The notes beneath the pieces were generated by a model. That model did not search any database. It saw only the letters and a list, made by a program, of their open reading frames with translations, and was not told where the DNA came from. A stretch of 43,385 bases of DNA from a virus (lineage: Duplodnaviria > Heunggongvirae > Uroviricota > Caudoviricetes), in IMG/VR virus record IMGVR_UViG_2778261121_000005, positions 1 through 43,385 of that record. The stretch is one strand, 5' to 3'. The position numbers and the translations under genes are program-made. Of the stretch, positions 16,807-37,715 are shown one piece after another (within the stretch, counting starts at the first letter, position 1; each line of letters opens with the position of its first letter).

Positions 16807-17700
16807 TTATTTTTTTGCCTTTTTAGCGGCGAAATACGGCGTCCAGTCACCAGTTTCCAGCGCCTTGGCTTTCAGTTTGTCGAGGTTGTTGATTACTGCG
16901 CCGTTGCTCCCCTTAACTGTCGGGGTTGTGGCTGCCGTGGTTTTTGCTTTTGGCATGATTCTGGCCTTCGATTCGATACGTTCCAGCAGACGACCAATTG
17001 CTACGGGGTTGGTAGCTTCTGCCAGTTGCTTGCGCAGTTCAGCGTTGCGACCGAGCGCCAGAACAACGATTTCCGGCTTCTCTGACTCAAACAGGATCGC
17101 GTTTTGTGTCTCGAAGGGGATTTCCTCGAGTACGGCCTGTTCTGCTTCCTGATAGCCAGGAACCTTGAGAGCCTTAACACGTTGCTGATATTTGGATAAT
17201 CGCTCTTGATAAGCAGCCTGAAGCTCCTGCTCCTTCTGCTTGCGAGCCATCTCCTGTTGCTGGTACTTTCCGTTATCCTCTGCCCACTTAGCCATGCGTT
17301 GCTGATAGATTTCTTCATCGAAACCGATATCCTCATCATCCAGTTTTGGCATTCGCGGTGGTTGAGTGATTGCCGGCTGCTGCTCGACGGGTTTCTGAGA
17401 CTGACGCATCAGCTCTTTCAGCTCGCGGTCTTTCTCTTTAATCGTCTTGCGCAGGTGTTTTACCAGTCCATGCTCAGCGCCATCTTCGCTGGTTGGCGAA
17501 TCCAGCTTTTCGTCACCAAAGTAGAATTCCTGTTCTGATTCGTCGTCATCAGTTTCAGTAGCCTCCTCTGCATCATTGCCTGAGGACTCACTACCATCTT
17601 CTGTTTCGACTTCTTCAGCCAGTTCGACATCATCAGGAATCTGCTCTGACGCGTCGGTTTCGATTTCAACTTCTGGTGTGTTTTCTGCCATCTGGTCCAT
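16807..17700 (-). CDS. scaffolding protein, P22 gp8-like
   Basis: 297 aa, very acidic N-terminus, coiled-coil-like Glu/Lys-rich centre; between portal and coat. Confidence 0.8.
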   Translation of the reverse strand: MDQMAENTPEVEIETDASEQIPDDVELAEEVETEDGSESSGNDAEEATETDDDESEQEFYFGDEKLDSPTSEDGAEHGLVKHLRKTIKEKDRELKELMRQSQKPVEQQPAITQPPRMPKLDDEDIGFDEEIYQQRMAKWAEDNGKYQQQEMARKQKEQELQAAYQERLSKYQQRVKALKVPGYQEAEQAVLEEIPFETQNAILFESEKPEIVVLALGRNAELRKQLAEATNPVAIGRLLERIESKARIMPKAKTTAATTPTVKGSNGAVINNLDKLKAKALETGDWTPYFAAKKAKK

Positions 17701-17790
17701 TTGTTACCCCTGTTTACTCGATGTTCAGCCCATCGGAAGGCAATAGGGTGCCAGGCCTCATAAAGACAGCCATTGCACGTTATGGGTTAA

Positions 17791-19989
17791 TTACTGCTGT
17801 GGTTGTTGCTGAGTTGATTTTTGCAGGATGCTGCTGATGTCCATGCGCTGCGCATGGCCCTGCGCCTGACTTTTCAGGACAAGCTCTGCATCAGCACGGG
17901 CATTATCTCCTTGCTGTTGCTGGAACTGTCCGAGCAGTTTCAGCGCCTCACGGATATCAGATTTTTGCTGGCTATCGGCAGATGCGAGGATTTTCACAAC
18001 ATTTGCCGCAGCAACCTGAGCATCCGTCTGTGCCTGGAATGCTTTAACCTGAATGGCTGCTTGTTCGTTCTGCGCTTTCTGCAATTCAGCCTGACCAGCA
18101 AGAAGCTGACCTTGCGCTGCAATCATAGCCGGATCCGGCTGACTGGCCTGTTGTTGTTTCGCCTGCTCAACCATCTGCTGCTCTTCTGGCGTTCTCGGCT
18201 TGATAACTCCAGACAGAAGCAACTGATTGCGGTTGTATTCTTTAAGGTCATCCATCCCTTCGCCGTCCATATTGTCGAGAATCATCGACGATACAAGGTC
18301 GTGCTTCGGCGTTCCTGGTGGGATAAGTGCCAGCATGGAAAGTAACGACTTAACCGTTGCATCACGGCGAGTAGCGAACGACTGACCGACATCGACAGTC
18401 ACTTCATAGTTACCCTGCGAAAGGTCGTTAAGCGCGATAACCTGGCCTGTCTGACGGTCAACCACTTCACCAGTCATCAGCGCCACGTCATCGCTGCCGT
18501 CCTCATTAACGATACGCATCGGCGTATCGCTGCCATAGACTTCACGAGCCATAGAAAGCCACACAACGCCAGCGCGACGCATGGATTTAGCCATGTTGTC
18601 CATGTAGATATAGGACTGCGTATCCATCCGGTTAAAGATGCTATCAACGGTATCGGTAGCAACGTTGCTCGGCATGTTCTCAAGCTGCGACGCGCCTGTA
18701 ATTTGCTGAATAGCCGTTCCGGTGTACTGCAATAGCCCGGCAAGAGCAGGAGGCATTTGTGTCGGAGGTGTATAACTGCTGACCTGAGCCTGCGCAGTAA
18801 TATCTCCGTTTTTGTTTTTCAGACTGACCATCGGCAGGAACGCCGGGCGCTTTTTGTTGCGCTCCGCCCAATGAGTGGCGAGAGGACCAGGAATCATGTC
18901 AACATCAACTACAGGAATGCCATCGCCGCCAGCCTGAGTGGCGTTATCTGCAATCATGGAAACCATCAGGTTCTCAAGACGCTGTGCATCCATCGCTTTT
19001 GCTGCGTGGCCTTCGATTCGCTCCTGATTATCAACAAATGAACGACGCCCATATACCGGGATGAGAGGAATATGTTCGCCCGGAATACGCTTCGGTTCTT
19101 CCAGCCATTCAGCGCCAGACAGAAGACCGCAATAAACTCGGCGTTTCTTCACTGTCCGCTCACCAATCAGTTCGAATGCGCCATCGGTCAGCTCGTCGAC
19201 AATATCTTTGATTTGATCTTCATCATAGATTGCCGTTTCTCCGCTAACAGGGTTACGCCATGCTGTGAGCTTCACCTTCTCTACGCGAACTTCGTAGTAG
19301 CGACCAACATAGATAGCATCAGGAGTTGACCAGTCATATTGAGTACCAGTGTCATCACGAGAAAGGCTTGCCGCAATGGAATCAGGGTATTCAGCCTCGA
19401 ACGCTTTAGGCGTCATGGAAAACATTTCCATAGCCCACATAGCATCAGAGCGGTCATATTGCTTGCTGTCCTGATCGAAGAAGACGCATGTCGCTGGGTC
19501 GTAAACAGGAAGAAGACTGATGCGTCGCTGCTCGTTACTCGGATCCATTTCATCTTCGTAATCGGCACACATGCGGAAACAACCGAATCCGCCCGTTACA
19601 GCATCATCAAATGCGTTATCACACGCTTCGCCACCGGATGTTTCCTGATAGTCAGCGCGGAATTTGCCGTTCATCTTTTCGGCTAACGCTTCCGATGCCT
19701 TATCGTCCTTCGGCCTGAATTTAACGCTGATGCGATTCTGTCGATACTCGCCAATGATGCGATCACATTCACGGGCAATCTTATTCAGTTCAAAACGCGG
19801 ATAATGCTCGAACCTGCCTTCATCAAATGAGTAACCAGCGTTTGTGCTGCCTTCCCACTGTGCGCCGGATACCCGGACGAAACGTTGAGCCTCAATAATC
19901 TGCTCACGCATATCCTGCGTTGCTGACCAGGCATTATCAAAGTTGCACAGCACCTTGCGATGCCAGTCAGTCATCTTTTTTTCTGCCAT
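17791..19989 (-). CDS. portal protein, P22 gp1-like
   Basis: 732 aa immediately downstream of the large terminase; Gln/Ala-rich C-terminal barrel-like tail. Confidence 0.85.
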   Translation of the reverse strand: MAEKKMTDWHRKVLCNFDNAWSATQDMREQIIEAQRFVRVSGAQWEGSTNAGYSFDEGRFEHYPRFELNKIARECDRIIGEYRQNRISVKFRPKDDKASEALAEKMNGKFRADYQETSGGEACDNAFDDAVTGGFGCFRMCADYEDEMDPSNEQRRISLLPVYDPATCVFFDQDSKQYDRSDAMWAMEMFSMTPKAFEAEYPDSIAASLSRDDTGTQYDWSTPDAIYVGRYYEVRVEKVKLTAWRNPVSGETAIYDEDQIKDIVDELTDGAFELIGERTVKKRRVYCGLLSGAEWLEEPKRIPGEHIPLIPVYGRRSFVDNQERIEGHAAKAMDAQRLENLMVSMIADNATQAGGDGIPVVDVDMIPGPLATHWAERNKKRPAFLPMVSLKNKNGDITAQAQVSSYTPPTQMPPALAGLLQYTGTAIQQITGASQLENMPSNVATDTVDSIFNRMDTQSYIYMDNMAKSMRRAGVVWLSMAREVYGSDTPMRIVNEDGSDDVALMTGEVVDRQTGQVIALNDLSQGNYEVTVDVGQSFATRRDATVKSLLSMLALIPPGTPKHDLVSSMILDNMDGEGMDDLKEYNRNQLLLSGVIKPRTPEEQQMVEQAKQQQASQPDPAMIAAQGQLLAGQAELQKAQNEQAAIQVKAFQAQTDAQVAAANVVKILASADSQQKSDIREALKLLGQFQQQQGDNARADAELVLKSQAQGHAQRMDISSILQKSTQQQPQQ

Positions 19990-19990
19990 A

Positions 19991-21406
19991 TCAACCTACA
20001 CCACAAGGAATTGAGTAACTGGAATAGTCGGGTTGCGCAGCCGACTCCGGGCAATGCATACACATCATCAGCGCATCAGCCAGGTTAGGAGATGGGATAC
20101 CGAGCTTCTGCTTCATTTCGACCTTAGTCATAAGCTCCAGCTTCCCGTTGTTATTGAATTTGCGCTGAATCTGCGTAAGTTCTGCAAACAGCTTCTCCAG
20201 CATCTTCTCGCCTATCGCTTCTTTGTCGAAACTCAGCATGTCGTCGGGGTCTGCATACTCACCGTGAACAACCGCCCGATATGTCAGATACAGTCTGTCA
20301 GCCAGCGCGTAATAGAATTGCGCTCGCTTATTGCGGAATACATCGCCAATAGTGCGAACGTTGTCACCCTGTACGACTTCATCAGCCCATGCTCCGGCCT
20401 GATACGGCGCATCTTCATCGAATGGCGATTCGCTACCCTTGAACATCGTGGCGGTGATTTTCTTGCCGGAGAACGCTTCCGTTGTCTGTCTGCGTAGCCC
20501 CGCACCGACGCCATCACCATCCCACAGGTAATGGTCAGCGCCGTCTTCAATCGCCAGCGAAGTAGCCCAGTCAGCACCCTCGTTGATGTCCATCAGCAGG
20601 CCTTCGGCAATGCGCTTAACAACCGAACCGTGACGCGATGCATAACCTTTAGCATCTGGCCCTGTATCTGATGGGTCATGCGCAGAGACAACAGCGCCTT
20701 TCGCTTTCCATCCGAGTTTCTTGTGCGCATCGGTTGCGGCTTCAAGCCATTCACGTTTGATGATTGCCATATCACTTGCGCTTACCGGCTCACCCAGCCA
20801 GATGTGACGATACAGTGTCGGATTTCTGCGTTTGCACTCTTCCATCTCCAGACGGAGAACTTCAGGAAAGTGCGGGTTGTCGGTGTAGTTCACCGTCAGC
20901 AGACAAATATCATCGGGAGGATTTACGACGAATCGCTGATAGGTATCGTCGAGGATGTTCTTCGGGTTAAAGCTCACCCATATTTCAGAGAACGGCTTAC
21001 GGATGGTTGGTATCAGGATATCCCATGATTCCTTTGTTACCGCTTCCGCTTCTTCCACCCAGCAGATATCAATGCCTTCGAGCGATTTAATCTTCGTCGG
21101 GTTGTTTTTGATGCCGTAGAACATGAACTCAGCATTCGTTCCGAGATGACGAATCATGGAACGCTGAATTTCAAACTCAGCCGAATACCCTTCACGCTCG
21201 ATAGTGTCTTCAAGCAACCGGATTACCGAATCGCTGATACTGTTTTGCAGTTCACGAGCGCAGAGAATACGCACAGGCTGCCGACGCGCCGCTTCAACAA
21301 GCAGCCTCGCAATTGCCCATGATTTGCCGCTACCTCGACCGCCTTTGGCGACTTTGTAGCGATGCGCCTCAATGAACGGTTCAAAGATAGGATTAATCGA
21401 GGTCAT
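19991..21406 (-). CDS. terminase large subunit
   Basis: 471 aa; Walker A GGRGSGKS near the N-terminus; overlaps the small-subunit gene. Confidence 0.9.
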   Translation of the reverse strand: MTSINPIFEPFIEAHRYKVAKGGRGSGKSWAIARLLVEAARRQPVRILCARELQNSISDSVIRLLEDTIEREGYSAEFEIQRSMIRHLGTNAEFMFYGIKNNPTKIKSLEGIDICWVEEAEAVTKESWDILIPTIRKPFSEIWVSFNPKNILDDTYQRFVVNPPDDICLLTVNYTDNPHFPEVLRLEMEECKRRNPTLYRHIWLGEPVSASDMAIIKREWLEAATDAHKKLGWKAKGAVVSAHDPSDTGPDAKGYASRHGSVVKRIAEGLLMDINEGADWATSLAIEDGADHYLWDGDGVGAGLRRQTTEAFSGKKITATMFKGSESPFDEDAPYQAGAWADEVVQGDNVRTIGDVFRNKRAQFYYALADRLYLTYRAVVHGEYADPDDMLSFDKEAIGEKMLEKLFAELTQIQRKFNNNGKLELMTKVEMKQKLGIPSPNLADALMMCMHCPESAAQPDYSSYSIPCGVG

Positions 21407-21843
21407 TTTCCGAACAGAGTGCTCATCGGTGATGTTTCAATCTGGATTGCGCCTCCGTCTTTGCCTGTTAGCTCGTGATCAACCTTGTCGCGCCATTTAT
21501 CCTTCTGTCTGTTCTTAAGCCAGAAGATGGCAGCTGTTGTATCAGGCGGGTAATACTTCTCAAGCGGAGTTTCGACAATTCTGTTTTCAATAACACGAAT
21601 ATCGATGTCTGGAGCCACGAAGCCCATAGCGCGTTGATAAAGACGGTCACTAACTTCTGCATCAGCAACGGCCTTACCCTTTTTTATGGACTCCGAAAAC
21701 TCAGGATAATCAAGCTTCCACTTGTTAATAGTTGACTCACTGACTTCGAAGAAATCAGCAAGCTCTGCATCGGTGTAGCCCAGCAAGCACAGTTTGCGTG
21801 CCTGTTCGGCGTACGCCTCTTGATACTTTGTTGGGCGCGCCAT
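21403..21843 (-). CDS. terminase small subunit
   Basis: 146 aa; HTH-like GYTDAELADFFEVSESTINKW; translationally coupled to the large subunit. Confidence 0.8.
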   Translation of the reverse strand: MARPTKYQEAYAEQARKLCLLGYTDAELADFFEVSESTINKWKLDYPEFSESIKKGKAVADAEVSDRLYQRAMGFVAPDIDIRVIENRIVETPLEKYYPPDTTAAIFWLKNRQKDKWRDKVDHELTGKDGGAIQIETSPMSTLFGK

Positions 21844-21845
21844 GT

Positions 21846-22088
21846 TTATGCTCCGGTAGTGAACAGGTCTAACGCTTCCTTCGATTTACGCACCGCTTCG
21901 ATTGTGCGGGTCGTGATATCTGAATTAGCGCCGCCTGACTGGAAGTGAATTTTGAATAGCTCAAGCTTCAGTTCGTCAGTGCCGATGAATTGAAATGCTT
22001 CTTCTGCGGCTGCGTTCTGGTTCATGACCAGCTTGTAAATCTCTAACTGGAATTTCTGTTCTTCAGTCATGGGAATAATCTCTGCCAT
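21846..22088 (-). CDS. hypothetical protein (80 aa) upstream of terminase small subunit
   Basis: ORF ending 3 nt before the terS start; no recognisable motif. Confidence 0.45.
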   Translation of the reverse strand: MAEIIPMTEEQKFQLEIYKLVMNQNAAAEEAFQFIGTDELKLELFKIHFQSGGANSDITTRTIEAVRKSKEALDLFTTGA

Positions 22089-22191
22089 TGTTGGCTCCGT
22101 TTATCCGTTAAAAGGGATATCAGTTAAGTTATCCCGTGTAGGGTATAAGCCATTATCAAAGCCACTCTGTAGGGAATGGCTTTTGTAATAA

Positions 22192-22572
22192 CTACTGTTC
22201 GCTTAACTTCTGCTTCAGCAAGTAACCTTCGAGCATCCAGATTTTGTTTACAGCATTCTGCCGGGCAATCTTCCGACCAATTTCTGCATCAAAATTTTCC
22301 GGACTTGCACAGGCACTCTCGCCGGTGACGGTGAAGCCATTCTTCAGCACCAGTACGCAGAAAGTGAGCAACTTCAATGGTGATAAATCACGATCGCCTT
22401 CTTCTGGTTTTTCCCTGCCACAATATTCGTTGCTGGAAATGGCACCATTTCGTCCATCATAAGCAGTAAAGTAATGCTCGCTTTTAATCACGTCTTCGAT
22501 GTGCTGCGGGGTGATTCGCGGAGCGGTTTTGCCTTTCTCAACGATTTCTTTTTCGATTTGCTGGTCGTTCAT
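22192..22572 (-). CDS. hypothetical protein, possibly N4 gp49 / Sf6 gp66 family
   Basis: 126 aa; family assignment from memory of similar proteins between lysis and terminase genes in P22-like phages. Confidence 0.45.
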   Translation of the reverse strand: MNDQQIEKEIVEKGKTAPRITPQHIEDVIKSEHYFTAYDGRNGAISSNEYCGREKPEEGDRDLSPLKLLTFCVLVLKNGFTVTGESACASPENFDAEIGRKIARQNAVNKIWMLEGYLLKQKLSEQ

Positions 22573-22805
22573 AATTATGACCCTGTAGAGTGGTTGCTTG
22601 ATTAGGATGTCTTTCCATCAGTCCGCCACCACAAAGAATCTTTTTTGCCATAAGGCTGGAGGTTCATCTTTCAGTGGCTGCCGGTGTTATTTCCCCACTT
22701 ACTGGCTTGGGTTGCTTCGTGGTACTGCCGTAACTGGTTGCCAAGAATAAATTCCGGTTTCATTATCAAGCCCACCCGTTGATGGGCTTTGTAATGACTA
22801 CATGG

Positions 22806-23285
22806 TTAAATGATTTGCCAGTCTTCAGCCATCAGGTCGCCAATGGATGGAACCCATGTAGCAAGGCGGTTCTGTGAGTTTTTCAATACAAGCGTGTCAT
22901 TGAAAGTTGGCTCGCCAACATATTCGCCAAAGCCATAACCCAACGCAGACGCTAATTTTTCCCCTTTCATGAGATAAACAAACTGGTCTTTCCCATTCCA
23001 TCCTGCCCGCTGCAAACTTTTGCCCTGTTTTAACGCTTCCATGGCAAGGCCGAAACTTAGTCCTGATACCGGACGATAAGCCCTTTCGAATACTTCTTTT
23101 GGACTCCAGCTAACGTAGCCATCAAAGCGATCGGTGTTAGGTTTTCCGCCATCCAGATATTCAACCAGATAGCCTTCGTCCTCGCCGTTTTCTCCGGCAG
23201 GAAGCTGCCAGCCACGAAAATCGTTATATGCCTGTCTCGTCATCGGAAAGGCGTTAATCAGTTTTACGCCAATATGCTGGGTCAT
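22806..23285 (-). CDS. hypothetical protein with DUF2829-like C-terminal half
   Basis: 159 aa; C-terminal segment (AMEALKQGKSLQRAGWNGKDQFVYLM) resembles DUF2829 proteins common in phages. Confidence 0.45.
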   Translation of the reverse strand: MTQHIGVKLINAFPMTRQAYNDFRGWQLPAGENGEDEGYLVEYLDGGKPNTDRFDGYVSWSPKEVFERAYRPVSGLSFGLAMEALKQGKSLQRAGWNGKDQFVYLMKGEKLASALGYGFGEYVGEPTFNDTLVLKNSQNRLATWVPSIGDLMAEDWQII

Positions 23286-23506
23286 AAAATCACCTATGGA
23301 GTTGGGAATAAAAAACCCCGCGAATGCGAGGCTAAATCCTGGTATTTGTAATGACTGGCTCTTATCTCAACGCAGCCCCTTACCGCGCGCCAGATGCTCA
23401 ATATCAAGCATCAGCAATGAGATGTTTAATCTGGATTCACTCCAGAAGTGATCACCACCCTGTCTACAGAGCCAGATGTGAAGGATGATGAGTAAAATTA
23501 TCGCTA

Positions 23507-23944
23507 TCATCGAAGGCATTGCGTCCTGATGTATTCCTGCAGGTAGTTAACCTGCGCGGTTATCCTGTCGATTCCACTTCTGAGACGGTAATAATTGAGT
23601 TCAGCATCTGCTGTAAGTCTTGGGCTTTCTCCATCGCCCATGCTGCTGGCTCCGGTCGTTGACTTTGCACAGGTGGCGGCGACTTGCAGGCGCTTACGCC
23701 CAGCAGAAACATCAGCACGGAGACTTTCGATAGTCGCGTTAGCATCAGCAAGTTCCTTTGTATATCTTGCGTCGAGTTCTGCTACATCACGTTGACGCTT
23801 CTGCATGTCAGCGATTGTGGATGTGGCTTTATCGCGCTGTTCTTTGTAGGCGATGGCGTTATCACGGTAATGATTAACCGCCCATGACAGGCAGACGATG
23901 ATGCAGATAACCAGAGCGGAGATAATCGCGGTTACTCTGCTCAT
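23507..23944 (-). CDS. Rz: i-spanin Rz
   Basis: 145 aa; N-terminal TM segment then coiled coil; immediately after the endolysin; contains the embedded Rz1 ORF. Confidence 0.85.
23560..23751 (-). CDS. Rz1: o-spanin Rz1 lipoprotein, embedded in the +1 frame of Rz
   Basis: 63 aa; lipobox LLGVSAC followed by proline-rich [14 protein letters not shown]; C-terminus resembles lambda Rz1. Confidence 0.8.
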
Positions 23945-24417
23945 ACCTCAATCTCTCTGACCGTTCCACCTGCTTCTTTGAATTTTGCAATCAGGCTGTC
24001 TGCCTTATGCTCGAACTGACAATAACCAGCACCCGGCAGTGAAGCCCAGATATTGCTGCAACGGTCGATTGCCTGACGGATATCGCCGCGATCAATCATC
24101 GGTAAAGCGCCACGCTCTTTAATCTGTTGCAGTGCCACAGCGTCCTGGCTTTTCGGAGAGAAGTCTTTCAGGCCAAGCTGCTTACGATAGGCATCCCACC
24201 AACGGGAAAGAAGCTGGTAACGTCCGGCTGCTGTTGATTTGAGTTTGGGGTTTAGCGTGACAAGTTTGCGAGGGTGATCGGAGTAATCAGTGAATAGCTC
24301 TCCGCCAACAATGACGTCATAACCATGATTTCTGGTTTTCTGCCGTCCGTTATCAGTTCCCTCTGACCACGCCAGCATATCGAGGAACGCCTTACGTTGA
24401 TTATTGATTTCCACCAT
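23941..24417 (-). CDS. R: endolysin (lambda R lytic transglycosylase)
   Basis: 158 aa, near-identical to lambda R as recalled ([52 protein letters not shown]...). Confidence 0.95.
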
Positions 24418-24724
24418 CTTCTACTCCGGCTTTTTTAGCAGCGAAGCGTTTGATAAGCGAACCAATCGAGTCAGTACCGATGTAGCCGATGAACACGCTC
24501 GTTATATAAGCGAGATTGCTACTTAGTCCGGCGAAGTCGAGAAGGTCACGAATGAACCAGGCGATAATGGCGCACATCGTTGCGTCGATTACTGTTTTTG
24601 TAAACGCACCGCCATTATATCTGCCGCGAAGGTACGCCATTGCAAACGCAAGGATTGCCCCGATGCCTTGTTCCTTTGCCGCGAGAATGGCGGCTAACAG
24701 GTCATGTTTTTCTGGCATCTTCAT
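24401..24724 (-). CDS. S: holin/antiholin (lambda S)
   Basis: 107 aa beginning [35 protein letters not shown] with dual-start Met1-Lys2-Met3, as in lambda S107/S105. Confidence 0.95.
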
Positions 24725-25122
24725 GTCTTACCCCCAATAAGGGGATTTGCTCTATTTAATTAGGAATAAGGTCGATTACTGATAGAACAAATCCAGGCTA
24801 CCGTGTTTAGTAATCAGATTTGTTCGTGACCGATATGCACGGGCAAAACGGCAGGAGGTTGTTAGCGCAACCTCATGCCACCCGCTTTCACGAAGGTCAT
24901 GTGTAGAAGGCCGCAGCGTAACTATCACTGATGAATTCAGGATAGCCAGTGGCTACGGCTCAGTTTGGGTTGTGCTGTTACTGGGCGGCGATGACGCCTG
25001 TACGCATTTGGTGATCCGGTTCTGCTTCCGGTATTCGCTTAATTCAGCACAACGGAAAGAGCACTGGCTAACCAGGCTCGCCGACTCTTCACGATTATCG
25101 ACTCAATGCTCTTACCTGTTGT

Positions 25123-25170
25123 GCAAACAAAAAAGCCACCGTTGCAACTTAAGAGTCACTAACGGCAGCT
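25123..25170 (-). terminator. late-leader terminator (tR'-like) directly downstream of candidate pR'
   Basis: On the minus strand an imperfect hairpin (GCCGTTAG...CAACGGTGGC) followed by TTTTTTGTTTG. Confidence 0.55.
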
Positions 25171-25174
25171 TATG

Positions 25175-25212
25175 CGAATAGTGTTGCTCATTTGCTCAAT
25201 GATGTCAACACG
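25175..25212 (-). promoter_or_regulatory. candidate late promoter pR' / Q-utilisation region
   Basis: On the minus strand TTGACA (25209..25204) just after the Q stop; -10 element is not clear-cut (AACACT/CACTAT). Confidence 0.4.
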
Positions 25213-25214
25213 TT

Positions 25215-25703
25215 CTATGCTACATGTTTAATTTTCTCTACACGTTTCCGGTTTTTAAACGCACTATCCAGAACCGGGTAAATCATAAACAACGAAGCAT
25301 TGAGGATTTCGTCAACTTCCCGGCGACAGGTTGCGAGCGATGGTTTTTGAATACGCCCGCCGCCCCGGCATAACATCTTGCGAGGTCTTGCGACACGATG
25401 ATAGTAAGATGCAATGGCATGCTTGGAAGATCCATGAGCGTAGTAGCTGAGGAGGATGCCAAAGGCTTTCTTGTCAATGTACATGACGGAATCGACGACC
25501 TGAGAAATCAACATTCCATCATCATCATTACACATTGGCCTTGTCATAACTCTTCCCGGCTCTACGCTCTCCATGAACTTCGCTATTACGCTGCTCATGC
25601 GCTTTTCCAGACGACCTGAATAAACCCATGCGCCCCACAGTTCAAGCCAGCCATTCAGCCACTCATGCTGTTCTTTGGTGAGGTTTAGTTCTCTTATGCC
25701 CAC
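25215..25703 (-). CDS. Q: late antiterminator Q (non-lambda Q family)
   Basis: 162 aa at the Q position between the nin-region phosphatase and the late promoter; [11 protein letters not shown] resembles a motif I recall from other prophage Q proteins; not similar to lambda Q. Confidence 0.7.
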
Positions 25704-26365
25704 GCGCCTTCTCCCTGTACCTGAATCAATGTGAGGTTTCCGCAGAACACTGCGCCGGTATCGATATACATTTGGTTGGCAAATTTAAGTGGTTTCACTG
25801 CTGGCGTATGACCAAAGATAAACGTGTCCGCGCCTTTGATTTCTTTTACGATCCCGTCTTGTGAGTTGCTGATTCGTTCGCGGTTCCAGATTACCTGCTG
25901 ATGATCAACTGGCTTTCCAAACTCGTATTCGTCACAAGGATAATCGGCGTGGCAGATGACATATTTTTTATCTTTGCTCACCAGTTCGATGATTAACGGA
26001 AGTTCATCTGCTTTATGGGCAAGAGCTTTAGCCAGAATTTCTTTGTCGTAATCGAGATTAAAGAACCAACTACCGCCATTAAGCAGCCAGTGATTGACGT
26101 TTCCGCGCTCTGATAAGCCATCAATCATCATTTGCTCATGGTTTCCACGTACAGCTCTGAACCAGGGGAATGTGATTAATTCCAGGCATTCAACGTTCTC
26201 TGTACCGCGATCGACCAAATCGCCAACCGAGATAAGCAGGTCTTTTTTGGTGTCGAATCCTATCGTCTCCAGTTTTTTCATCAGGTTCGTGTAGCATCCG
26301 TGCAGATCGCCAACTACCCAAATATTTCGGTATTTGCTGCCATCAATTCTTTCGTAATAGCGCAT
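25694..26365 (-). CDS. Ser/Thr protein phosphatase (lambda PPase / NinI-like)
   Basis: Near-identical to lambda phosphatase as recalled ([29 protein letters not shown]...GNHE); metallophosphatase GDLHG/GDLVDRG/GNHE motifs; start chosen at MRYYE. Confidence 0.9.
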
Positions 26366-26549
26366 CTCTTTCACTCCATCCGCGATGAACCATGAGAACG
26401 TCGTTGACTATGGCGTGCATTTTCCCGTCTTTATCATCAACGTATTTTCTGACCGTACCGCGACTACATTTCAGTCTGCGTGCCACTTCTGTCTGGTTTC
26501 CGTATGCTTCAACGAGCATGTCTGGAATGGTTTTTACTGAGAACGTCAT
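26343..26549 (-). CDS. ninH: NinH
   Basis: 68 aa, matches lambda NinH as recalled; HTH-like. Confidence 0.85.
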
Positions 26550-27157
26550 GCGGCCTCACTTCTGCTATTTCGCAGGTCTTTGAGTTTCTGTTGGTACTCT
26601 GCCTTGATCGCCTTGCACTCTTCGACAGTCCAGCGATGGCGGTTATGGTTTGATTCGATTTCGTCTACTGCTTCCTGCCCGATTCGGTTAATCAGTTCGA
26701 CGCGATACGGAACGAGATTTCCGCTTTTATGCTGGTTGCACACCACGCATTGCTTGTGAATATTGCGTTCATCAAATCGGAGTTGAGGTGCCGCAGCAGT
26801 TGTCCGGTAATGTCCAGCATCCCACTGAGCAGACGTGAGCGTTCCGCACGAGATACATGGTAAGTCGCGGTCTCTTTCTCTGATGAAGGCGTTTACGGCT
26901 TGTTGGGCTTGTTTAATCCAGTAACTGCGGGGCTTTAAGGCGAGTTTTCGAATCTTAAGTTTATCTTTCTGTTTCTGCTCCTCTCGTCGTCGTTTCTTCT
27001 CTGCTGCCTTTTCCGCTTTTTCGCGTTCTTTGCTTCGTCGTTCGAGTGCTATCTTGGTTCCACACTCTGGAGAGCACCACCACTGATTGGCGAATGCAGG
27101 GTGAAACCATTCCCGACATTCATCGTTTTTACATCGTCTTCGCGCTGGTTTAGCCAT
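26546..27157 (-). CDS. ninG: NinG (Rap recombination endonuclease)
   Basis: 203 aa; cysteine-rich N-terminus ([12 protein letters not shown]...WCSPEC) and HNH-like core; lambda NinG-like. Confidence 0.85.
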
Positions 27158-27320
27158 CGTCTTCTTCCTCGTGCATCGAGCTATTCGGATCGCTCATCAG
27201 TTCTGCGCAGCAGTGCTCACACACGTGAACTTCCAGCACATGCAGCTTCTGACCGCAGTTAGCGCACGTTAAAGCTCGCTCGACACTTCCTTGTTCGTAA
27301 CTTCGATTTTGGTCAATCAC
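27150..27320 (-). CDS. ninF: NinF
   Basis: 56 aa from GTG ([56 protein letters not shown]), matches lambda NinF; not in the ORF track (no ATG start, under 60 aa). Confidence 0.75.
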
Positions 27321-27499
27321 CTTGTTTTCCTCGCACGTTCTCTAAGCCACCGGATATCCCACAGGTGAGCTGTGTAATTGAAGGTTTTTACGTCAGATTC
27401 TTTTGGGATTGGCTTGCGTTTATTTCTGGAGCGTTTCGTTGGAAGGTATTTGCAGTTTTCGCAGATGATGTCGGTGATACTTCGTCGCTGTCGTCTCAT
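27317..27499 (-). CDS. ninE: NinE
   Basis: 60 aa [60 protein letters not shown], matches lambda NinE; track ORF extends upstream without support. Confidence 0.8.
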
Positions 27500-28023
27500 G
27501 CCGCCCTCCTGACACCCCGCCCGATCGCCATCAATGCCGCTTTGGATACGGTAGTAAACATCCGTCGAGGACTGATGAACGGTCGCCAAATCAGCAGCAT
27601 GGAGCCTTTGCTGTTTCCCTTCTTCTCCAGCCCTGTCGATGGTTCGATAAAATTAATCCGTCCATCAGTGATGATGCGAACTTCGTCGACACTCTCCAGA
27701 GCCTTGCTGAACCATCCGACTGACATATCCTCTGGCACAAGCATAACTACCGTCTGTCGCTGTTGTATGCACTGCTCAGCGGCTTTTTCCACCCACGGCC
27801 TGATATTGCTGTACGGTGGGTTATTCCAGATTGCACCGTGGCTTATCCACTCAGAATTGAGTGCGTCGTCGGCCTCAGTTAGCCAGTGAGCGCACAGAGC
27901 ATTTTTGTCGCTCGCTGCCGAATCCAGCCAGAATCCAAACTCAATATCCAGTGCATCAAAAAGCCAAAGCGGCGTTTGCCAGCAGTCCTTGTCGTGTGCT
28001 GCCGTATTTGATTTGATAGTCAT
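27496..28023 (-). CDS. phage DNA N6-adenine methyltransferase (Dam-like, orphan)
   Basis: 175 aa from ATG with SD GGGGAGA; catalytic NPPY motif (IWNNPPYS); no adjacent restriction endonuclease gene. Confidence 0.8.
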
Positions 28024-28460
28024 GCAGCCCGATCTCCCCATCGCGCTTTCCATTCGAGAGCTAGTCGCGCTTCGTCTGACCACTTAACGCCACGCTCTGT
28101 ACCGAATGCCTGTATAAGCTCTAATAGCTCCGCAAATTCGCTTACACGCATCCTGCTGGTTGACTGGCCTATTACCACAAAGCCATTCCCGGCAAGGTTA
28201 GGAACAACGTCCTGCTGCTTTAATGCTGCGGTAAACACACACTTCCAGCTTTCTGCATCCAGCCAGCGACCATGCCATTCAACCTGACGCGAAACGTCAC
28301 CAAGGCAAGCCCAAAGCTTCCGATTTTGGTCTAAGCTGCGGTTGCGCTCCTGAATGGTTACTACGATTGGTTTGGTTGGGTCTGGAAGAATTTGCTGTAC
28401 CGCGTGAATAGCGTTTTGCTGATGTGCTGGAGATCGAATTTCAAAGGTTAGTTTTTTCAT
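28020..28460 (-). CDS. ninB: NinB (Orf-family recombination mediator)
   Basis: 146 aa, same length and nin-region position as lambda NinB. Confidence 0.8.
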   Translation of the reverse strand: MKKLTFEIRSPAHQQNAIHAVQQILPDPTKPIVVTIQERNRSLDQNRKLWACLGDVSRQVEWHGRWLDAESWKCVFTAALKQQDVVPNLAGNGFVVIGQSTSRMRVSEFAELLELIQAFGTERGVKWSDEARLALEWKARWGDRAA

Positions 28461-28477
28461 GACTTCCCTCTACCCCA

Positions 28478-28512
28478 AATAAAAAGGCCTGCGATTACCA
28501 GCAGGCCTGTTA
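28478..28512 (-). terminator. rho-independent terminator between helicase and ninB (tR2-like)
   Basis: Perfect 8-bp stem AGGCCTGC/GCAGGCCT with 8-nt loop, followed on the minus strand by TTTTTATTT. Confidence 0.7.
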
Positions 28513-28533
28513 CAAGCTCAGTGATGTAGATGG

Positions 28534-29910
28534 TCATACGTCAGCCCCTTGTGCATATCGTCTGCCACGTGCAGCAGGTGTATTTGATGTTGTGCAAATC
28601 TGTCTGGCTTCATCCTGGTCACATGCAACAAAGTGTCCGTTGCAGAACCGCTGGTAAACCGTACCAAGCGAGCCAAAACGGTTTTTCGTTACGATGATTT
28701 CAGCAAATGGCGCGGCGCTACTGTTCTCGTCATATACCGCTTCCCGATAGAGCATGATGATTGAGTCTGCGTCCTGTTCAATGCTTCCTGAATCACGCAA
28801 ATCTGCGTTTGTCGGGCGTTTGTTTGGTCGCTTCTCAACATCGCGCGAAAGCTGACTCAGGGAGATAACGGGCGTTTTCAGGTCTTTCGCCATCGCCTTC
28901 AGGCTTCCGGAGATGTGAGCAATTGCGAGGTCGTTGCGGTCTGCTTTCGGCTTCTCAATCAGGCCAAGATAATCCACCATGATGAGTGAGAGGTTTGGAT
29001 TTTCCTGTTTGTGCCGTTCTGCGATTGAGCGTATTTCTTCGACCGATAACCGCGAGGCATCGACTACCCATACATCCAAATCTGCAAGCTGACTCATGCC
29101 GTTAGCAACGCGCGCCCAGCCTTCGTCATCCATCGCTGCAGGATTTCGCAGCACACTAACCGACATCCTCCCGGCGTTGGCAATGCTTCGCTCTGCAATC
29201 TGCAATGCGCTCATTTCCATTGAGAAAATCAATACCCCGCGCCGGACGTCAGAACCAGGAATAACGCGGCTTGCAACGCCTTCGGCAATCTTCAGCGCCA
29301 GTTCGGTTTTCCCCATACCAGGACGAGCAGCGATTATCACCAGGTCTTCCGCGTTCATCCCTCCGGTGATGGCATCAAGTTCTTCGATTCCGGTCTTCAG
29401 GGTATCGGACTCTTCTCCGTTCCTCAGACGCCTGTCAAGCGTGTCAGTGTAGTCAGTAATGATTTCCCCTAACCGTACAGGTTTAACCTCGTCACGGGGC
29501 TTTCTGATGGCTGAAAGACGTTTTACAAGCTCATCCATCGCCTGACTCGATGCGTCGATGGTTCCGCTCTGAATTGGTTCACGCATTTCATCCATGATTT
29601 CCAGCACCAGACGGCGGTGATAGTTATCCGCGACCATTCCGGCATATCCCTTCAGGTTTGCGGCACTCGGGCAGTTTTTGCTGGTCATCAGGATTGACGT
29701 GAAATGCTCCTCTCCGCACGCCTCGGCAACCATCAGCGCATCGATTAGGTTTCTGTTTCTCGCCTGCTTGCGGATAACCTCGAAGGCTTTCCGGTAGAGC
29801 GGAATTGAAAACGCTTCCGGCTCCAGCGTTGCCAGAACGTCGCTGGCGGTTGGTGTTAATCCACCAATCAGCAGGCCACCGATAACGCTCGCTTCGATAT
29901 CCTGTCTCAT
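28534..29910 (-). CDS. replicative DNA helicase (DnaB family; P22 gp12-like)
   Basis: 458 aa; Walker A ARPGMGKT; DnaB-like N-terminal domain; downstream of the replication initiator. Confidence 0.9.
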
Positions 29911-30728
29911 GCAATCCCCCTGTCTGCAAACTTCCCTTCCCGTACTCCCGTTAACGAATCTTCCCTCAGCAGGTAATCAAAATCAGCTGTCCAGCCCGTG
30001 TCGTTGTCTCCGAAGTAAAACGGCTTGGCCTGATGCACAAACGCCCTGACATACGCTCTGAAACCGTCCACGTTTGGCGTTTTCAGTTGCGGGATGATTT
30101 TCTTCAGGCGGCGTTTGCGTTTCTCGTTGACCGCAACAGCGTGTGGCAGTCTGTCACCGACTTCGGTGTTGTAGGCGTTCAGGAAGGATTCGTAGTCGAT
30201 TCGTTCTGCCTTGCGACGTTCAGGTTTAACCTGCCCATCGCCACCCCCGTTAGGGGGTAAGGGGGTATTTGTATTTATTGTCTTTTGTATATTGTCTTTT
30301 GTGTTTAGCTGACTTGGCTTATACCCATTAGCCGACTTGGCTAATGTTTTATTAGCTGTTTTAGCTAATGTTAAGCTGTCCTGGCTAATCCACTGAGAAA
30401 CCACCTTGTTCACTCCGATTTTCACGCCATCAGCAATGAGGAATTTACGCTCGATAAGCTGGCGCTTGGCAGCGCAAACATGAGTGTGATGAATACCTGT
30501 CATGGCTGCTATCTGCGTGTTTGTGAGTCGATCCATCGGCTTATTGAATCCGTATGTCTTGCGCATGATAGCGAGCATCACCTTCAACTGCCGGACGGTT
30601 AAATCAGCCATCAGCAGACTGTCGGTAATCTCGTTAGCAACGCGCATGAAACCATCTTCGGTATCTGCCACGCGATGCTCCACGACCTCAAGTTGAGGCC
30701 TGTAATCAGCTAACTTAACGACGCCCAT
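29907..30728 (-). CDS. replication initiation protein (lambda O / P22 gp18-like) containing the origin
   Basis: 273 aa; N-terminal O-like DNA-binding region; iteron-bearing linker encoded at 30240..30380. Confidence 0.8.
30276..30372. repeat. candidate replication origin iterons inside the initiator gene
   Basis: Tandem ATTGTCTTTTGT x2 (30278..30303), TTAGCTGACTTGGCT / TTAGCCGACTTGGCT (30305..30319, 30328..30342), repeated TAGCTAATGTT motifs; adjacent G-rich CCCCCGTTAGGGGGTAAGGGGG. Confidence 0.65.
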
Positions 30729-30876
30729 GTTTCACTCCTGCTTTGGCTAGTCTGTAAACACCAACAAGGCGCTCTGCGAACGCCCTGTTATTTGCTGCGG
30801 CTACCACTAATCCCTCAGGTGAATCAGGGTGTCGAATCTCTTCTTTTTCCTGGTATTTCTTACGACGTTTTGTCAT
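30715..30876 (-). CDS. hypothetical small basic protein (53 aa) between cII-like and initiator genes
   Basis: ATG with SD AGGAG at 6-nt spacing; stop overlaps the initiator start; not in ORF track (under 60 aa). Confidence 0.4.
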   Translation of the reverse strand: MTKRRKKYQEKEEIRHPDSPEGLVVAAANNRAFAERLVGVYRLAKAGVKHGRR

Positions 30877-30908
30877 AATTACTCCTGTGGATTGATCCAG
30901 TAATTCCC

Positions 30909-31205
30909 TCAGAATTGCATATCAATTTGCTTAAAATCCTCGGCGGCCACCGGGGATTTTTTCTTTGTGATTTCATCAAGCGCATACTTAAAAGCCCTGC
31001 TAATCGGACTGATGTCTGATGCCATTCCGAAAGCACACAAGACCGAAGCAATAAATCTCCAGTCCGTTCTGCTTATCTTCGATTCATGACAGCCAATCAT
31101 CTTTGCCAGACCGCGCTGGGTAAGCGTTGACAGGTTGATAAGTAAATCTGTTTCTGCGCGATCAACGTCGCGCTGTGATAGTTTGCTGTAACTTGTTTGT
31201 TCCAT
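30909..31205 (-). CDS. cII: CII-like transcriptional activator
   Basis: 98 aa immediately downstream of cro and nutR; HTH segment ...GLAKMIGCHESKISRTDWRF... analogous to lambda CII. Confidence 0.75.
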   Translation of the reverse strand: MEQTSYSKLSQRDVDRAETDLLINLSTLTQRGLAKMIGCHESKISRTDWRFIASVLCAFGMASDISPISRAFKYALDEITKKKSPVAAEDFKQIDMQF

Positions 31206-31269
31206 TTCTTATGATTTCCATAGGTAAATAATCACTAATACTCATCTTTCGATGAGCGATTAATTAGTT

Positions 31270-31304
31270 ACCGCGTTGTCGGCGGTGCAGATTGATAAAG
31301 AGCG
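31270..31304 (-). promoter_or_regulatory. nutR (boxA + boxB)
   Basis: On the minus strand boxA CGCTCTTTA, then boxB hairpin ACCGCCGACAACGCGGT, between cro and cII. Confidence 0.75.
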
Positions 31305-31314
31305 GATCCGCTTA

Positions 31315-31530
31315 TTAAGCGGCTTTGTGTTCCGGCGGGAACACGTCATCAAGACTGACTTTTGCGCCTAACTTGTTTAGGCACGCAACAAGAGCACGGC
31401 ATGTTTTAAGGTCTGGGAAGCGACGACCAGATTCCCAATGTCCGATAGCTCCCTGTGTGCATCCAACCGCCTTAGCAAGTGTTGTTTGAGAGATATTCAG
31501 TGACTCTCGATATTTTCGTAGGTTGCTCAT
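31315..31530 (-). CDS. cro: Cro-like repressor (HTH)
   Basis: 71 aa from internal ATG with SD GGAGGG; HTH QTTLAKAVGCTQGAIGHWESG; divergent from the repressor gene. Confidence 0.8.
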   Translation of the reverse strand: MSNLRKYRESLNISQTTLAKAVGCTQGAIGHWESGRRFPDLKTCRALVACLNKLGAKVSLDDVFPPEHKAA

Positions 31531-31554
31531 ATGCCCTCCATAGTAACCATGAAA

Positions 31555-31631
31555 CAATAATACGATATGTACTTTTGGAATGCAAACAAAAAATACATCT
31601 TGTGCATGGATGGTTTTAGTACATAGCGTAA
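31555..31631. promoter_or_regulatory. right operator/promoter region (OR, PR, PRM) with GTAC-type operator sites
   Basis: Inverted near-identical 12-mers TACGATATGTAC (31561..31572) and GTACATAGCGTA (31619..31630); minus-strand PR candidate TTTGCA-N18-TATTAT overlapping the first site. Confidence 0.6.
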
Positions 31632-31641
31632 TAATAAGGAT

Positions 31642-32301
31642 ATGAAAATGAAATGGTATGAACTGGCTAGATCCAGAATGAAAGAGCTCGGCATAACTCA
31701 AGAGAAGTTAGCTGAAGAGCTTGGTATGACGCAGGGTGGAATTGGTCACTGGTTGCGCGGATCTCGTCATCCATCTCTTGACGAGATTGGTGTGGTGTTT
31801 AAATACCTTGGTATTGATAACGTCTCATTCAACCACGACGGTACATTTTCACCTGCTGGCGAATACTCATCTGCCCCCGTTAAAAAACAATATGAGTACC
31901 CTGTTTTTTCTCATGTTCAGGCCGGGATGTTCTCGCCTGAGCTTAGAACCTTTACCAAAGGTGATGCGGAGAGATGGGTCAGCACAACCAAAAAAGCCAG
32001 TGATTGTGCGTTTTGGCTTGAAGTTGAAGGTAATTCCATGACCGCACCAACAGGATCCAAGCCAAGCTTTCCTGACGGAATGTTAATTCTCGTTGACCCT
32101 GAGCAGGCTGTTGAGCCAGGAGATTTCTGCATAGCCAGACTTGGCGGTGACGAGTTTACCTTCAAGAAACTGATCAGGGATAGCGGTCAGGTGTTCCTAC
32201 AACCACTAAACCCGCAATATCCAATGATCCCATGCAATGATAGCTGTTCCGTAGTAGGGAAAGTTATCGCCAGCCAGTGGCCTGAAGAGACATTTAGTTA
32301 A
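31642..32301 (+). CDS. cI: prophage repressor (CI / P22 C2-like, LexA-type S24 peptidase domain)
   Basis: 219 aa; N-terminal HTH ([25 protein letters not shown]); C-terminal domain resembles P22 C2 ([13 protein letters not shown]...LVDPE...FKKL...PLNPQYPMI). Confidence 0.9.
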
Positions 32302-32332
32302 CAGCCTCACCACTCTAAAACACACAACAATA

Positions 32333-32361
32333 ACCCGACCTTAGCGTCGGGTTTTCTTTTT
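32333..32361 (+). terminator. rho-independent terminator after the repressor gene
   Basis: ACCCGAC-cttagc-GTCGGGT followed by TTTCTTTTT. Confidence 0.7.
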
Positions 32362-32426
32362 CCAAAATATAAATCAATAAAATACAAAGTGTTATAAAAA
32401 ACCAACCACATTTAGAACATTTTGTA

Positions 32427-32455
32427 TTGACTCAATAAAGTACACATCGTACTAT
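32427..32455 (+). promoter_or_regulatory. PL promoter with overlapping OL operator
   Basis: TTGACT-N17-TACTAT; operator-like AGTACACATCGTACT (32439..32453) shares the GTACA.A.CGTA pattern with the OR sites. Confidence 0.65.
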
Positions 32456-32501
32456 TTAGCCATCAGCAGGAAGCTGGAAGCCAAACGGAACAGATTGGCA
32501 G

Positions 32502-32535
32502 GCTCTTTAACTTCGATGGGGCGCTGACAAAGCGC
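32502..32535 (+). promoter_or_regulatory. nutL (boxA + boxB)
   Basis: boxA-like GCTCTTTAA then boxB hairpin GCGCTGACAAAGCGC (matches P22 boxB as recalled). Confidence 0.75.
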
Positions 32536-32654
32536 AAACAGATACCAAACGAGATGGGTTTGGCGGTGATGTGAATTGCAGCTGCAACGACAGCAACCAG
32601 AAGATCAGCACCTGGCGCATCACCACCAAAGCCATTTCACATGAGGAAAATATC

Positions 32655-32963
32655 ATGACGGTAATCGTGTACGGAAAATCAACATTTGCAGGAAATGCCA
32701 AAACTCGCCGTCATGAGCGGCGCAGAAAGCTGGCTATCGAGCGTGATGCTATATGCAACATCATCGATTCGATCTTCGGCACAGACAGTGAGGAACCTGT
32801 TCAGGAAGCCCCGAGAAAGCGTTTAAGCATTTCTGAAAAAGCAATATCACTCGGCATCATTAGCAAATCAAATACAGATGCGAATAGCGGAAGCGTTTGT
32901 TTGCCTGAAGTCGCACTGTATGCTGCTGGTTACAGAAGGCAAAAACTAATTACAGCGAGGTAA
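32655..32963 (+). CDS. N-type antiterminator (P22 gp24-like)
   Basis: 102 aa MTVIVYGKSTFAGNAKTRRHERRRKLAIERDAICNIIDSIFG...; arginine-rich motif; SD GAGGAAAA. Confidence 0.85.
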   Translation: MTVIVYGKSTFAGNAKTRRHERRRKLAIERDAICNIIDSIFGTDSEEPVQEAPRKRLSISEKAISLGIISKSNTDANSGSVCLPEVALYAAGYRRQKLITAR

Positions 32964-32965
32964 AA

Positions 32966-33244
32966 ATGAAGCCTAGCATAACAATCAAGCCAGCGAGAGA
33001 TAATAGCAGGAACCGCCGCAGAGAGGCCAGGAAGGCAGAAAGAGCAGAGAAGGAAAACAAGAGCCGGGAGGAGAGAAAGGCAGAGATTTTGGAAAAAGGA
33101 GGATTGGCTGCCGTGAGGGGTGAAAAAGCAGCTGAATTAGCAGTAGCTCACGAAAAGACAGAGATTGACAATAATTCTGGTGGAGATGCAATGTTTAAAG
33201 TTGTCAATCACGCCCATCAACGAAACCCCAAAAAGAAATGGTAA
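32966..33244 (+). CDS. hypothetical Lys/Arg/Glu-rich protein (92 aa)
   Basis: ORF starting 3 nt after the antiterminator stop; highly charged; followed by a terminator. Confidence 0.45.
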   Translation: MKPSITIKPARDNSRNRRREARKAERAEKENKSREERKAEILEKGGLAAVRGEKAAELAVAHEKTEIDNNSGGDAMFKVVNHAHQRNPKKKW

Positions 33245-33246
33245 TC

Positions 33247-33270
33247 AACCCGTCCAAGACGGGTTTTTTA
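33247..33270 (+). terminator. rho-independent terminator in the early-left operon
   Basis: CCCGTC-caa-GACGGG followed by TTTTTT. Confidence 0.7.
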
Positions 33271-33371
33271 TTGCAAGCAAACCACTTATTTGAGGTGAGA
33301 TATGGAAGAAGAATTTGAAGAGTTCGAAGAGCATCCGCAGGATGTGATGGAACAATACCAGGACTATCCGT

Positions 33372-33572
33372 ATGACTACGACTATTGATAAAAATCAATG
33401 GTGTGGACAATTCAAGCGATGCAATGGATGCAAGCTGCAATCGGAATGCATGGTTAAGCCTGAAGAAATGTTTCCTGTAATGGAAGATGGGAAATATGTC
33501 GATAAATGGGCAATACGAACGACGGCAATGATTGCCAGAGAACTTGGTAAACAGAATAACAAGGCTGCCTGA
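33372..33572 (+). CDS. ral: restriction alleviation protein Ral
   Basis: 66 aa MTTTIDKNQWCGQFKRCNGCKLQSECMVKPEEMFPVMEDGKYVDKWAIRTTAMIARELGKQNNKAA, matches lambda Ral as recalled. Confidence 0.85.
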   Translation: MTTTIDKNQWCGQFKRCNGCKLQSECMVKPEEMFPVMEDGKYVDKWAIRTTAMIARELGKQNNKAA

Positions 33573-37714: not shown

Positions 37715-37715
37715 T

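Follow-up and report, generated by a model that had tools for sequence, protein, structure and literature searches.

The region between the nin genes and the lysis gene S of this P22-like genome is very probably a complete late-control cassette of the phage 21 type set in a lambda-like backbone, as judged from sequence comparison. The window that we analysed, a stretch of 43,385 nt, is as a whole a P22-like mosaic of Sf6/CUS-3/JEP4-like virion genes and lambda/HK97-like early genes, and no full-length close relative of it was found in the phage collection. Its late region reads on the minus strand, with the ORFs in the order ninI (26374..25694), Q (25703..25215), S (24724..24401) and R (24417..23941). 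The cassette consists of the Q21 gene with an internal antisense promoter (paQ), the late promoter pR'21, two Q-binding repeats, a sigma-dependent pause element and the terminator tR'21. The backbone around it consists of lambda-like nin genes, a lambda-like late leader and the lysis genes S-R-Rz. This is ordinary lambdoid mosaicism: a module swap of a well-known kind, with the same joint present in other prophages. The genes concerned, and the promoter inside Q, are:

25694..26374, minus strand: ninI-type Ser/Thr phosphatase gene (Pfam Metallophos), the end of the lambda-like nin block
25215..25703, minus strand: Q21 late-gene antiterminator, 162 aa, GTG start (protein identity, Pfam and DNA alignment)
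25378..25410, plus strand: putative antisense promoter paQ inside Q, with CII box TTGCGAGGTCTTGC at 25378..25391 and -10 box TAAGAT at 25405..25410, transferred from the phage 21 annotation via a gap-free alignment
24401..24724, minus strand: S, lambda-type holin/antiholin, 107 aa, dual start MKM (Pfam PF05106; 99% identical to lambda S)

The Q protein is 100% identical over 162 aa to the phage 21 Q of the solved structures PDB 6JNX and 6P18, and it is assigned to Pfam PF06530 (E = 8.8e-25). Lambda Q belongs to PF03589, and comparison of the two proteins gave no detectable similarity (BLASTP E = 4.5). The first-pass annotation of this DNA had proposed a Q of a non-lambda family among lambda-like S and nin genes, and both halves of that proposal hold, with S at 99% and the nin region at 97.2% identity to lambda up to 25701.

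The change of parentage is abrupt at both ends of the cassette. BLAST of window positions 26800..23400 against lambda (NC_001416) and phage 21 (OL657228) divided the region into three segments:

26800..25701: nearest relative lambda, 97.2% identity
25716..25129: nearest relative phage 21, 98.1% identity, no gaps
25134..23828: nearest relative lambda, 96.6% identity, no gaps

Neighbouring segments overlap by just 16 and 6 bases. Because identities of 96-98% extend over hundreds of bases, chance is not at issue. Diagnostic bases in the alignments define the two joints as follows:

25700..25716, minus strand: left joint, the linker AGGGAGAAGGCGCRTG, made up of the ribosome-binding site and start codon of Q and present alike in lambda, phage 21 and the window
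25123..25126, minus strand: right joint, phage 21-type to lambda-type sequence

At the left joint, 16-17 bases are shared, and in a three-way alignment the window is lambda-like upstream of them and phage 21-like downstream. The ninI/Q boundary is marked as a recombination site in lambda's own record. At the right joint, the final base that is of the phage 21 type and not of the lambda type is 25126, and the earliest base that is of the lambda type and not of the phage 21 type is 25123. The switch thus falls 1-3 bases past the terminator U-tract, where a U-tract followed by TG is shared (phage 21, GGTGGCTTTTTTTATTTGGGTCAG; lambda, CGGGATTTTTTATATCTGCACAAC; window, GGTGGCTTTTTTGTTTGCACAAC) and where lambda's own tR' and tR'21 have their U-tracts in register. 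A mosaic joint had been predicted at 25100..25125, and alignment with the lambda and phage 21 late regions places it at the upper edge of that interval, together with the left joint at the Q start codon. Left and right, the nearest relative switches abruptly beside a short sequence shared by both parents, the pattern by which lambdoid module boundaries are recognized, and two boundary sequences, bsq4 and bsq3, are annotated at the equivalent positions in the CUS-3 record. The exchanged unit runs from the Q start codon to the end of tR', about 575 bp. The left joint, at the Q start codon, matches the right one, so that the exchange took in a complete cassette. At 25128 the window has a G that is of neither the phage 21 type nor the lambda type but is shared with JEP4 and CUS-3, which argues against phage 21 and lambda themselves as the direct parents.

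Within the exchanged unit, every regulatory element annotated in phage 21 is conserved. The DNA of the window is 98.1% identical to OL657228 from 13 nt upstream of Q to the U-tract. We took the regulatory features from the curated annotation of that record, which cites the original paper on the phage 21 late region; because the alignment is gap-free, they transfer directly:

25180..25208, minus strand: constitutive late promoter pR'21, base-for-base identical to phage 21, features as in OL657228
25208..25203, minus strand: pR'21 -35 box TTGACA, 6 nt past the Q stop codon
25200..25193, minus strand: Q-binding repeat 1, ATTGAGCA, 8 bp, exact phage 21 sequence
25192..25185, minus strand: Q-binding repeat 2, AATGAGCA, 8 bp, exact phage 21 sequence
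25185..25180, minus strand: pR'21 -10 box AACACT, identical to phage 21
25173, minus strand: predicted transcription start, A, its position carried over from the phage 21 annotation
25172..25166, minus strand: putative sigma-dependent pause element TAAGCTG, assigned by its identity to the annotated phage 21 element
25171..25135, minus strand: hairpin of the intrinsic terminator tR'21, with the U-tract TTTTTTGTTT at 25134..25125 (span transferred from phage 21, 25171..25124), assigned from fold and identity

The two direct repeats (25200..25185) sit between the -35 and -10 boxes of pR'21; the Q-binding element and its 8-bp subsites have been described [bioRxiv 10.1101/651190 and 10.1101/2020.10.05.325894]. 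The tR'21 hairpin folds at -20.2 kcal/mol as RNA, compared with -11.3 for shuffled sequences (z = -3.4), and UUUUUUGUUU then follows. Its stem contains a bulge and is identical in phage 21, Sf6, JEP4 and CUS-3; a terminator is annotated here in the phage 21 and Sf6 records. A scan of 24300..25800 for consensus promoters and terminators called neither pR'21 nor tR'21. Such a simple scan is uninformative for these two elements because the -10 box is weak (AACACT agrees with the consensus at 3 of 6 positions) and the stem is bulged. The start site, pausing and termination would carry over to the window by its identity with phage 21, and an RNA terminated at tR'21 would be about 45-50 nt long, counted from the predicted start at 25173. 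A TTGACA-containing promoter region after Q and a terminator about 50 nt downstream had both been noticed from the sequence at the outset, and both are borne out by the comparison with phage 21.

The lambda counterpart of the cassette is absent. In lambda (NC_001416, 43886..45186), identity to the window is 96.6-97.2% in two stretches: the nin genes as far as the Q start codon, and the sequence that begins at the U-tract of tR' (44776) and takes in the leader, S and R. In contrast, lambda Q, its promoter, its qut site and the 194-nt 6S RNA are replaced in the window by the phage 21-type cassette. A lambda 6S probe found no match in the window within 3 mismatches, and no lambda-type Q cassette (PF03589 Q with 194-nt 6S RNA) was detected there.

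Outside the cassette, phage 21 differs from the window. Downstream, phage 21 has tRNA-Asn, tRNA-Thr, the S21 pinholin and a SAR-endolysin, and upstream its ninH is truncated and ninI is missing. In the window, the leader, S/R/Rz and ninH-ninI are instead all of the lambda type. This architecture has been described before. For example, the Sf6 record annotates "21-like Q, late promoter, qut, tR'" and then "lambda-like S, R, Rz", and Sf6, CUS-3 and related P22-like phages also have virion genes related to those of the window. However, the Q genes of Sf6, HF4s, CUS-3 and HK75 have diverged from that of the window (about 85% DNA identity; Sf6 Q, 86% protein identity), and their Q-binding repeats differ in kind, being of the TTAGCCAT type in Sf6 and CUS-3 and of the TGAGCA type in the window. 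Co-variation of Q allele and binding repeats has already been discussed for phage L [bioRxiv 10.1101/2020.10.05.325894]. Sf6 and HF4s also keep the tRNA pair of phage 21, and CUS-3 has a leader allele of the JEP4 type. Escherichia phage JEP4 (MT740315) and Salmonella phage S.Inf 5-2 have the true Q21 allele with its promoter (97.9%), the junction TTTTTT(T)GTTTGCACAACAGGTAAGAGCATTGA and the same S gene as the window. They differ from it between about 25102 and 24975, where their LPR2-type hairpin region is a divergent allele. Past the terminator, the window, JEP4, S.Inf 5-2 and CUS-3 agree in the first 22 nt of the lambda-type sequence. The Q-to-S region might have derived whole from a single known phage, but no record in the phage collection carries it in one collinear piece.

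The leader downstream of the joint is of the lambda type, as had been proposed: from 25134 to the S start at 24724 it is 97.1% identical to lambda 44776..45185 (410 nt). It is itself a mosaic, with the following parts:

25054..25116, minus strand: 63-nt hairpin holding the sequence of the lambda LPR2 sRNA, beginning 7 nt past the joint (fold and probe match)
24975..25123, minus strand: lambda-specific part of the leader (alignments)
24725..24974, minus strand: common S-proximal leader, annotated as bsq3 in CUS-3 and shared at 95-99% by lambda, Sf6, JEP4, CUS-3 and others

The northern probe P844 for LPR2, the sequence of which is given in the supplement of bioRxiv 10.1101/2024.10.31.621285, matches 25060..25094 exactly. 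In lambda, LPR2 is an Hfq-bound sRNA of about 63 nt from the late operon [bioRxiv 10.1101/2024.10.31.621285, which concerns lambda only]. Given this match and the missing match to 6S, the prophage should keep LPR2 and exchange 6S for the short phage 21-type RNA. JEP4 and CUS-3 have, at the LPR2 position, a hairpin that agrees with this one at its base but differs in its interior. Further joints lie near 25102, 24974/24965, 24905 and 24895. The joint at 24974/24965 is the end of the JEP4 allele and of the Sf6 tRNA module, that at 24905 is the end of a 61-nt piece that phage 21 retains, and that at 24895 is the start of homology to HK022, HK97 and mEp213. The 250 nt adjoining S are common to phages with different modules upstream. 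Tandem terminators were reportedly found downstream of lambda tR' by Luk and Szybalski in 1983, and some of the leader hairpins could be accounted for by these.

The simplest history is a single cassette replacement. A lambda-type Q/6S/tR' cassette would have been replaced by one of the phage 21 type, through recombination at short shared sequences, in an ancestor whose descendants are now widespread. The reverse history would begin with a late region like that of phage 21 or Sf6, in which a lambda-type LPR2 segment displaced the tRNA module and which gained the lambda-like nin block in a separate step. It takes at least two events, and we consider it rather improbable, though worth weighing. 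The slot at 24975..25123 is occupied by tRNA-Asn and tRNA-Thr in phage 21 and Sf6, so that the tRNA pair takes up exactly the place of the lambda segment in the window, and right after its tRNAs phage 21 retains a 61-nt piece (window 24965..24905, 98.4%) of the common leader. JEP4 and CUS-3 have a third, divergent allele at this slot, which indicates that the slot between tR' and the S-proximal leader has been exchanged independently of Q. The window itself has no tRNA genes anywhere (ARAGORN), and thus no tRNA module of the phage 21/Sf6 type after tR'. However, the flanks of the cassette are both lambda-like, at similar identity (97.2% and 96.6%), and the U-tract of lambda tR' lines up with the joint in register. 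One double crossover into a lambda-like backbone is thus a more economical account than the reverse history.

A different question is why the joint lies past the terminator. It might be that the terminator travels with Q21 for its own sake, if the short pR'21-tR'21 RNA were a functional sRNA, like StxS in Stx phages. There is precedent, in that the short terminated pR' RNAs of Stx phages are Hfq-dependent sRNAs and similar short RNAs are made from phage 21 [PMC7547250]. In addition, phage 21, the window, JEP4, Sf6 and CUS-3 all have the same hairpin sequence despite the diverged Q gene and binding repeats of Sf6 and CUS-3. Nonetheless we think this explanation unlikely. The short RNA of phage 21 is not known to have a function. 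The hairpin could equally well be conserved because the 5' arm of its stem overlaps the pause element and because the lysogen needs to terminate transcription efficiently.

The right joint is not private to the genome of the window; other E. coli chromosomes and IMG/VR contigs carry it. The whole 979-nt stretch is collinear, at 96-97%, in six complete E. coli chromosome records: AW1.7 (two assemblies), DETEC-S589, G749 and CB7286 (two records). The AW1.7 prophage (NZ_CP073624), for example, is collinear with the window from Q to S, including the joint, at 97.4% over 979 nt. Unlike the window, it has a Q pseudogene with an internal stop, different upstream nin genes and the U-tract variant TTTTTTTATTTG. 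A scan for the exact junction pattern found the tR'21/lambda-leader joint in 15 IMG/VR contigs, likewise collinear with the window from Q to S, a third of which (5) have a diverged Q allele and a 690-bp insertion between the promoter and tR'21; the exact-junction scan of species-representative genomes gave no matches. Lambdoid prophages do share long near-identical stretches able to mislead assemblers, but an assembly chimera of two co-resident prophages is so improbable as to be negligible, given that the joint recurs in those closed chromosomes, with AW1.7 assembled twice independently, and in the IMG/VR contigs.

By analogy with phage 21, the cassette may be expected to work as follows. In the absence of Q, RNA polymerase would start near 25173, pause at the pause element and stop at tR'21, releasing an RNA of about 45-50 nt. 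When Q21 is present, two protomers bound to the direct repeats would load onto the paused polymerase. Loaded Q21 would form a torus, or "nozzle", that narrows the RNA exit channel, such that the pause and terminator hairpins could not form, and transcription would pass tR'21 and continue along the lambda-type leader to S, R, Rz and the virion genes. This loading and nozzle mechanism is described in bioRxiv 10.1101/651190. Since loaded Q acts regardless of the downstream sequence, everything past the loading site is freely exchangeable, and a joint there is functionally neutral. The first-pass annotation had argued from the specificity of Q for its cognate site that the joint "must" lie past the terminator. 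The joint is indeed found there, but the necessity was overstated: Q specificity needs just the binding repeats and the pause element alongside Q. A study of gene co-transfer in lambdoid phages (PMC9836094) contains nothing on Q and its site.

The S-proximal part of the leader may also have a function of its own. As RNA it folds far below shuffled sequences (z = -5.67), and two structures can be drawn in it:

24743..24894, minus strand: candidate RNA structure, with P1 pairing 24894..24888 with 24829..24823, P2 at 24885..24839 and P4 pairing 24794..24783 with 24754..24743
24731..24744, minus strand: stem-loop CCCC-TTATT-GGGGG just upstream of the S dual start, assigned from sequence, its stem varying on both sides across holin leaders

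We take the second of these to be the lambda sdi structure that governs the dual start of S; the 3' arm of P4 overlaps it by two bases. A core of about 115 nt is kept at 73-80% identity in P22, g341c and HK620 and occurs in many IMG/VR contigs, and pattern scans recovered more than 100 distinct variants of the element. It is found in lambdoid and P22-like phages, always 56-65 nt upstream of the first late ORF. The ORF at that place encodes a holin of the lambda-S type (PF05106), the HP1-like class II type (PF16080) or the LydA type (PF16083), or else it belongs to one of two unassigned types of small ORF.

Comparison of these variants is consistent with base pairing. The model of P1, P2 and P4 pairs 93.5% of cells in 62 non-redundant, mutually related sequences, compared with 35-43% when the partners are slid, in a set where several helix arms were fixed by the search patterns and the scans took in only sequences resembling the element. 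Ten pairs change on both sides, none of them in P1. The covariation score is 0.152; slid controls score 0.02-0.08 and shuffles 0.111, with none of 500 shuffles attaining the value of the model. Within the 10-bp core of P4, both variable positions change from U-A to U-G, which is compatible with pairing on the sense RNA only. An alternative pairing, P3 (GAACAAATC with GGATTTGTTC), is weaker than P4, with one pair broken in 52 of the 62 sequences and 83% versus 94% of cells paired. A small protein encoded in the leader (ORF 24928..24776, 50 aa) was also considered; HK97 has a 2-nt deletion and P22 has +1 and -1 indels in the conserved core, and with indels of 1-2 nt the coding explanation is excluded. 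Rfam returned nothing at the gathering threshold for the whole window and nothing at E <= 10 for 24650..25260. It is possible, though we hold it only tentatively, that the 175 nt nearest to S (24898..24722) act in cis as a conserved RNA, in which P1 encloses P2 in a closed two-hairpin domain followed by a P4 of 10-12 bp.

In lambdoid phages, Q moves as a unit with the promoter-proximal loading site and the terminator that belong to it, and recombination occurs at short sequences shared at the edges of modules. The exchange described here adds very little that is new to this textbook rule, of which it is a clean case resolved to the base. Its value is mainly for annotation: the late genes of this prophage would be under control of the Q21 type, not of the lambda type, and in the lysogen a pR' RNA of about 45-50 nt should take the place of lambda 6S RNA, while the lambda LPR2 sRNA should be kept. 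The observations made beside it, of LPR2 right after the joint and of a conserved structured leader before diverse holin genes, could matter more if confirmed. Translation of the holin sets the timing of lysis. If the structure is real, the leader would be of a kind not described before, adjusting holin/antiholin translation and hence lysis timing, and its conservation would also supply the homology for swapping holin genes and Q cassettes.

The window (1..43385) is a P22-like mosaic. Its virion genes are 95-96% identical to those of JEP4, CUS-3 and E212, and, over many short pieces, its early genes resemble those of HK97, lambda and HF4s; none of the phage records compared with the two halves of the window covers more than ~60% of either half.

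The Q gene starts with GTG (25701..25703), as do the Q genes of JEP4 and Sf6. The corresponding codon in phage 21 and lambda, within the linker that both share with the window, is ATG. The closest collinear relative over the whole Q-to-S stretch is a prophage of E. coli AW1.7, in which Q (L006:1500..1988) is interrupted by an internal stop and annotated as a pseudogene. This prophage is probably unable to turn on its late genes.

Relatives with an Sf6-type Q allele carry an insertion between the late promoter and the phage 21-type terminator hairpin, tR'21:

L010:5062..5790, region with an insertion of ~690 bp; also in L012, L013, L014, L018 and E. coli AVS0578 (H151)

A 170-aa open reading frame in the insertion has HNH_3 and AP2 domains and resembles a homing endonuclease gene. 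The insertion also brings its own terminator-like hairpin, and the late leader of these loci thus has two tandem terminators.

Within the lambda-type leader of the window, the direct repeat GCACAAC (25118..25124 and 24969..24975) lies on either side of a lambda-specific segment of ~150 nt. In the predicted fold, this segment is closed by the 9-nt stems GUUGUGCUG and CAGCACAAC (25053..25045 with 24977..24969), and the JEP4 allele retains this predicted long-range stem with one compensatory change. Phage 21 has a 61-nt piece of the lambda-type S leader (L004:2237..2297) that is 98.4% identical to 24905..24965 of the window and lies between its tRNA-Thr gene and S21. This slot seems to have undergone an exchange before, of which the piece would be a remnant.

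Closer to S is a conserved element (24722..24898, minus strand) with a predicted structure of three helices (P1, P2 and P4) followed by a stem-loop at the S start. It has some compensatory changes, and it had no match in Rfam. L022, L023, L024 and many IMG/VR loci have this element too. The gene that starts 56-65 nt downstream of it is a holin gene, from one of at least three Pfam families, or an ORF of one of two unassigned types. The leader pattern also matches other contigs (L146, L164, L173 and others): low-coverage ones of ~48.4-48.5 kb in assemblies labelled Pseudomonas and Shewanella, and shorter ones in many other non-enteric taxa. These contigs look like contamination with lambda control DNA rather than true hosts.

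Seven nucleotides past the joint between phage 21-type and lambda-type DNA, a hairpin begins (25054..25116, minus strand) in which the northern probe for LPR2 of lambda matches exactly; the probe for lambda 6S RNA has no match in the window. LPR2 is a late-operon sRNA of ~63 nt that is bound by Hfq (bioRxiv 10.1101/2024.10.31.621285). The hairpin that JEP4 and CUS-3 have at this position shares its stem base with that of the window but differs in its interior, and thus an sRNA with targets other than those of LPR2 might be made from it.
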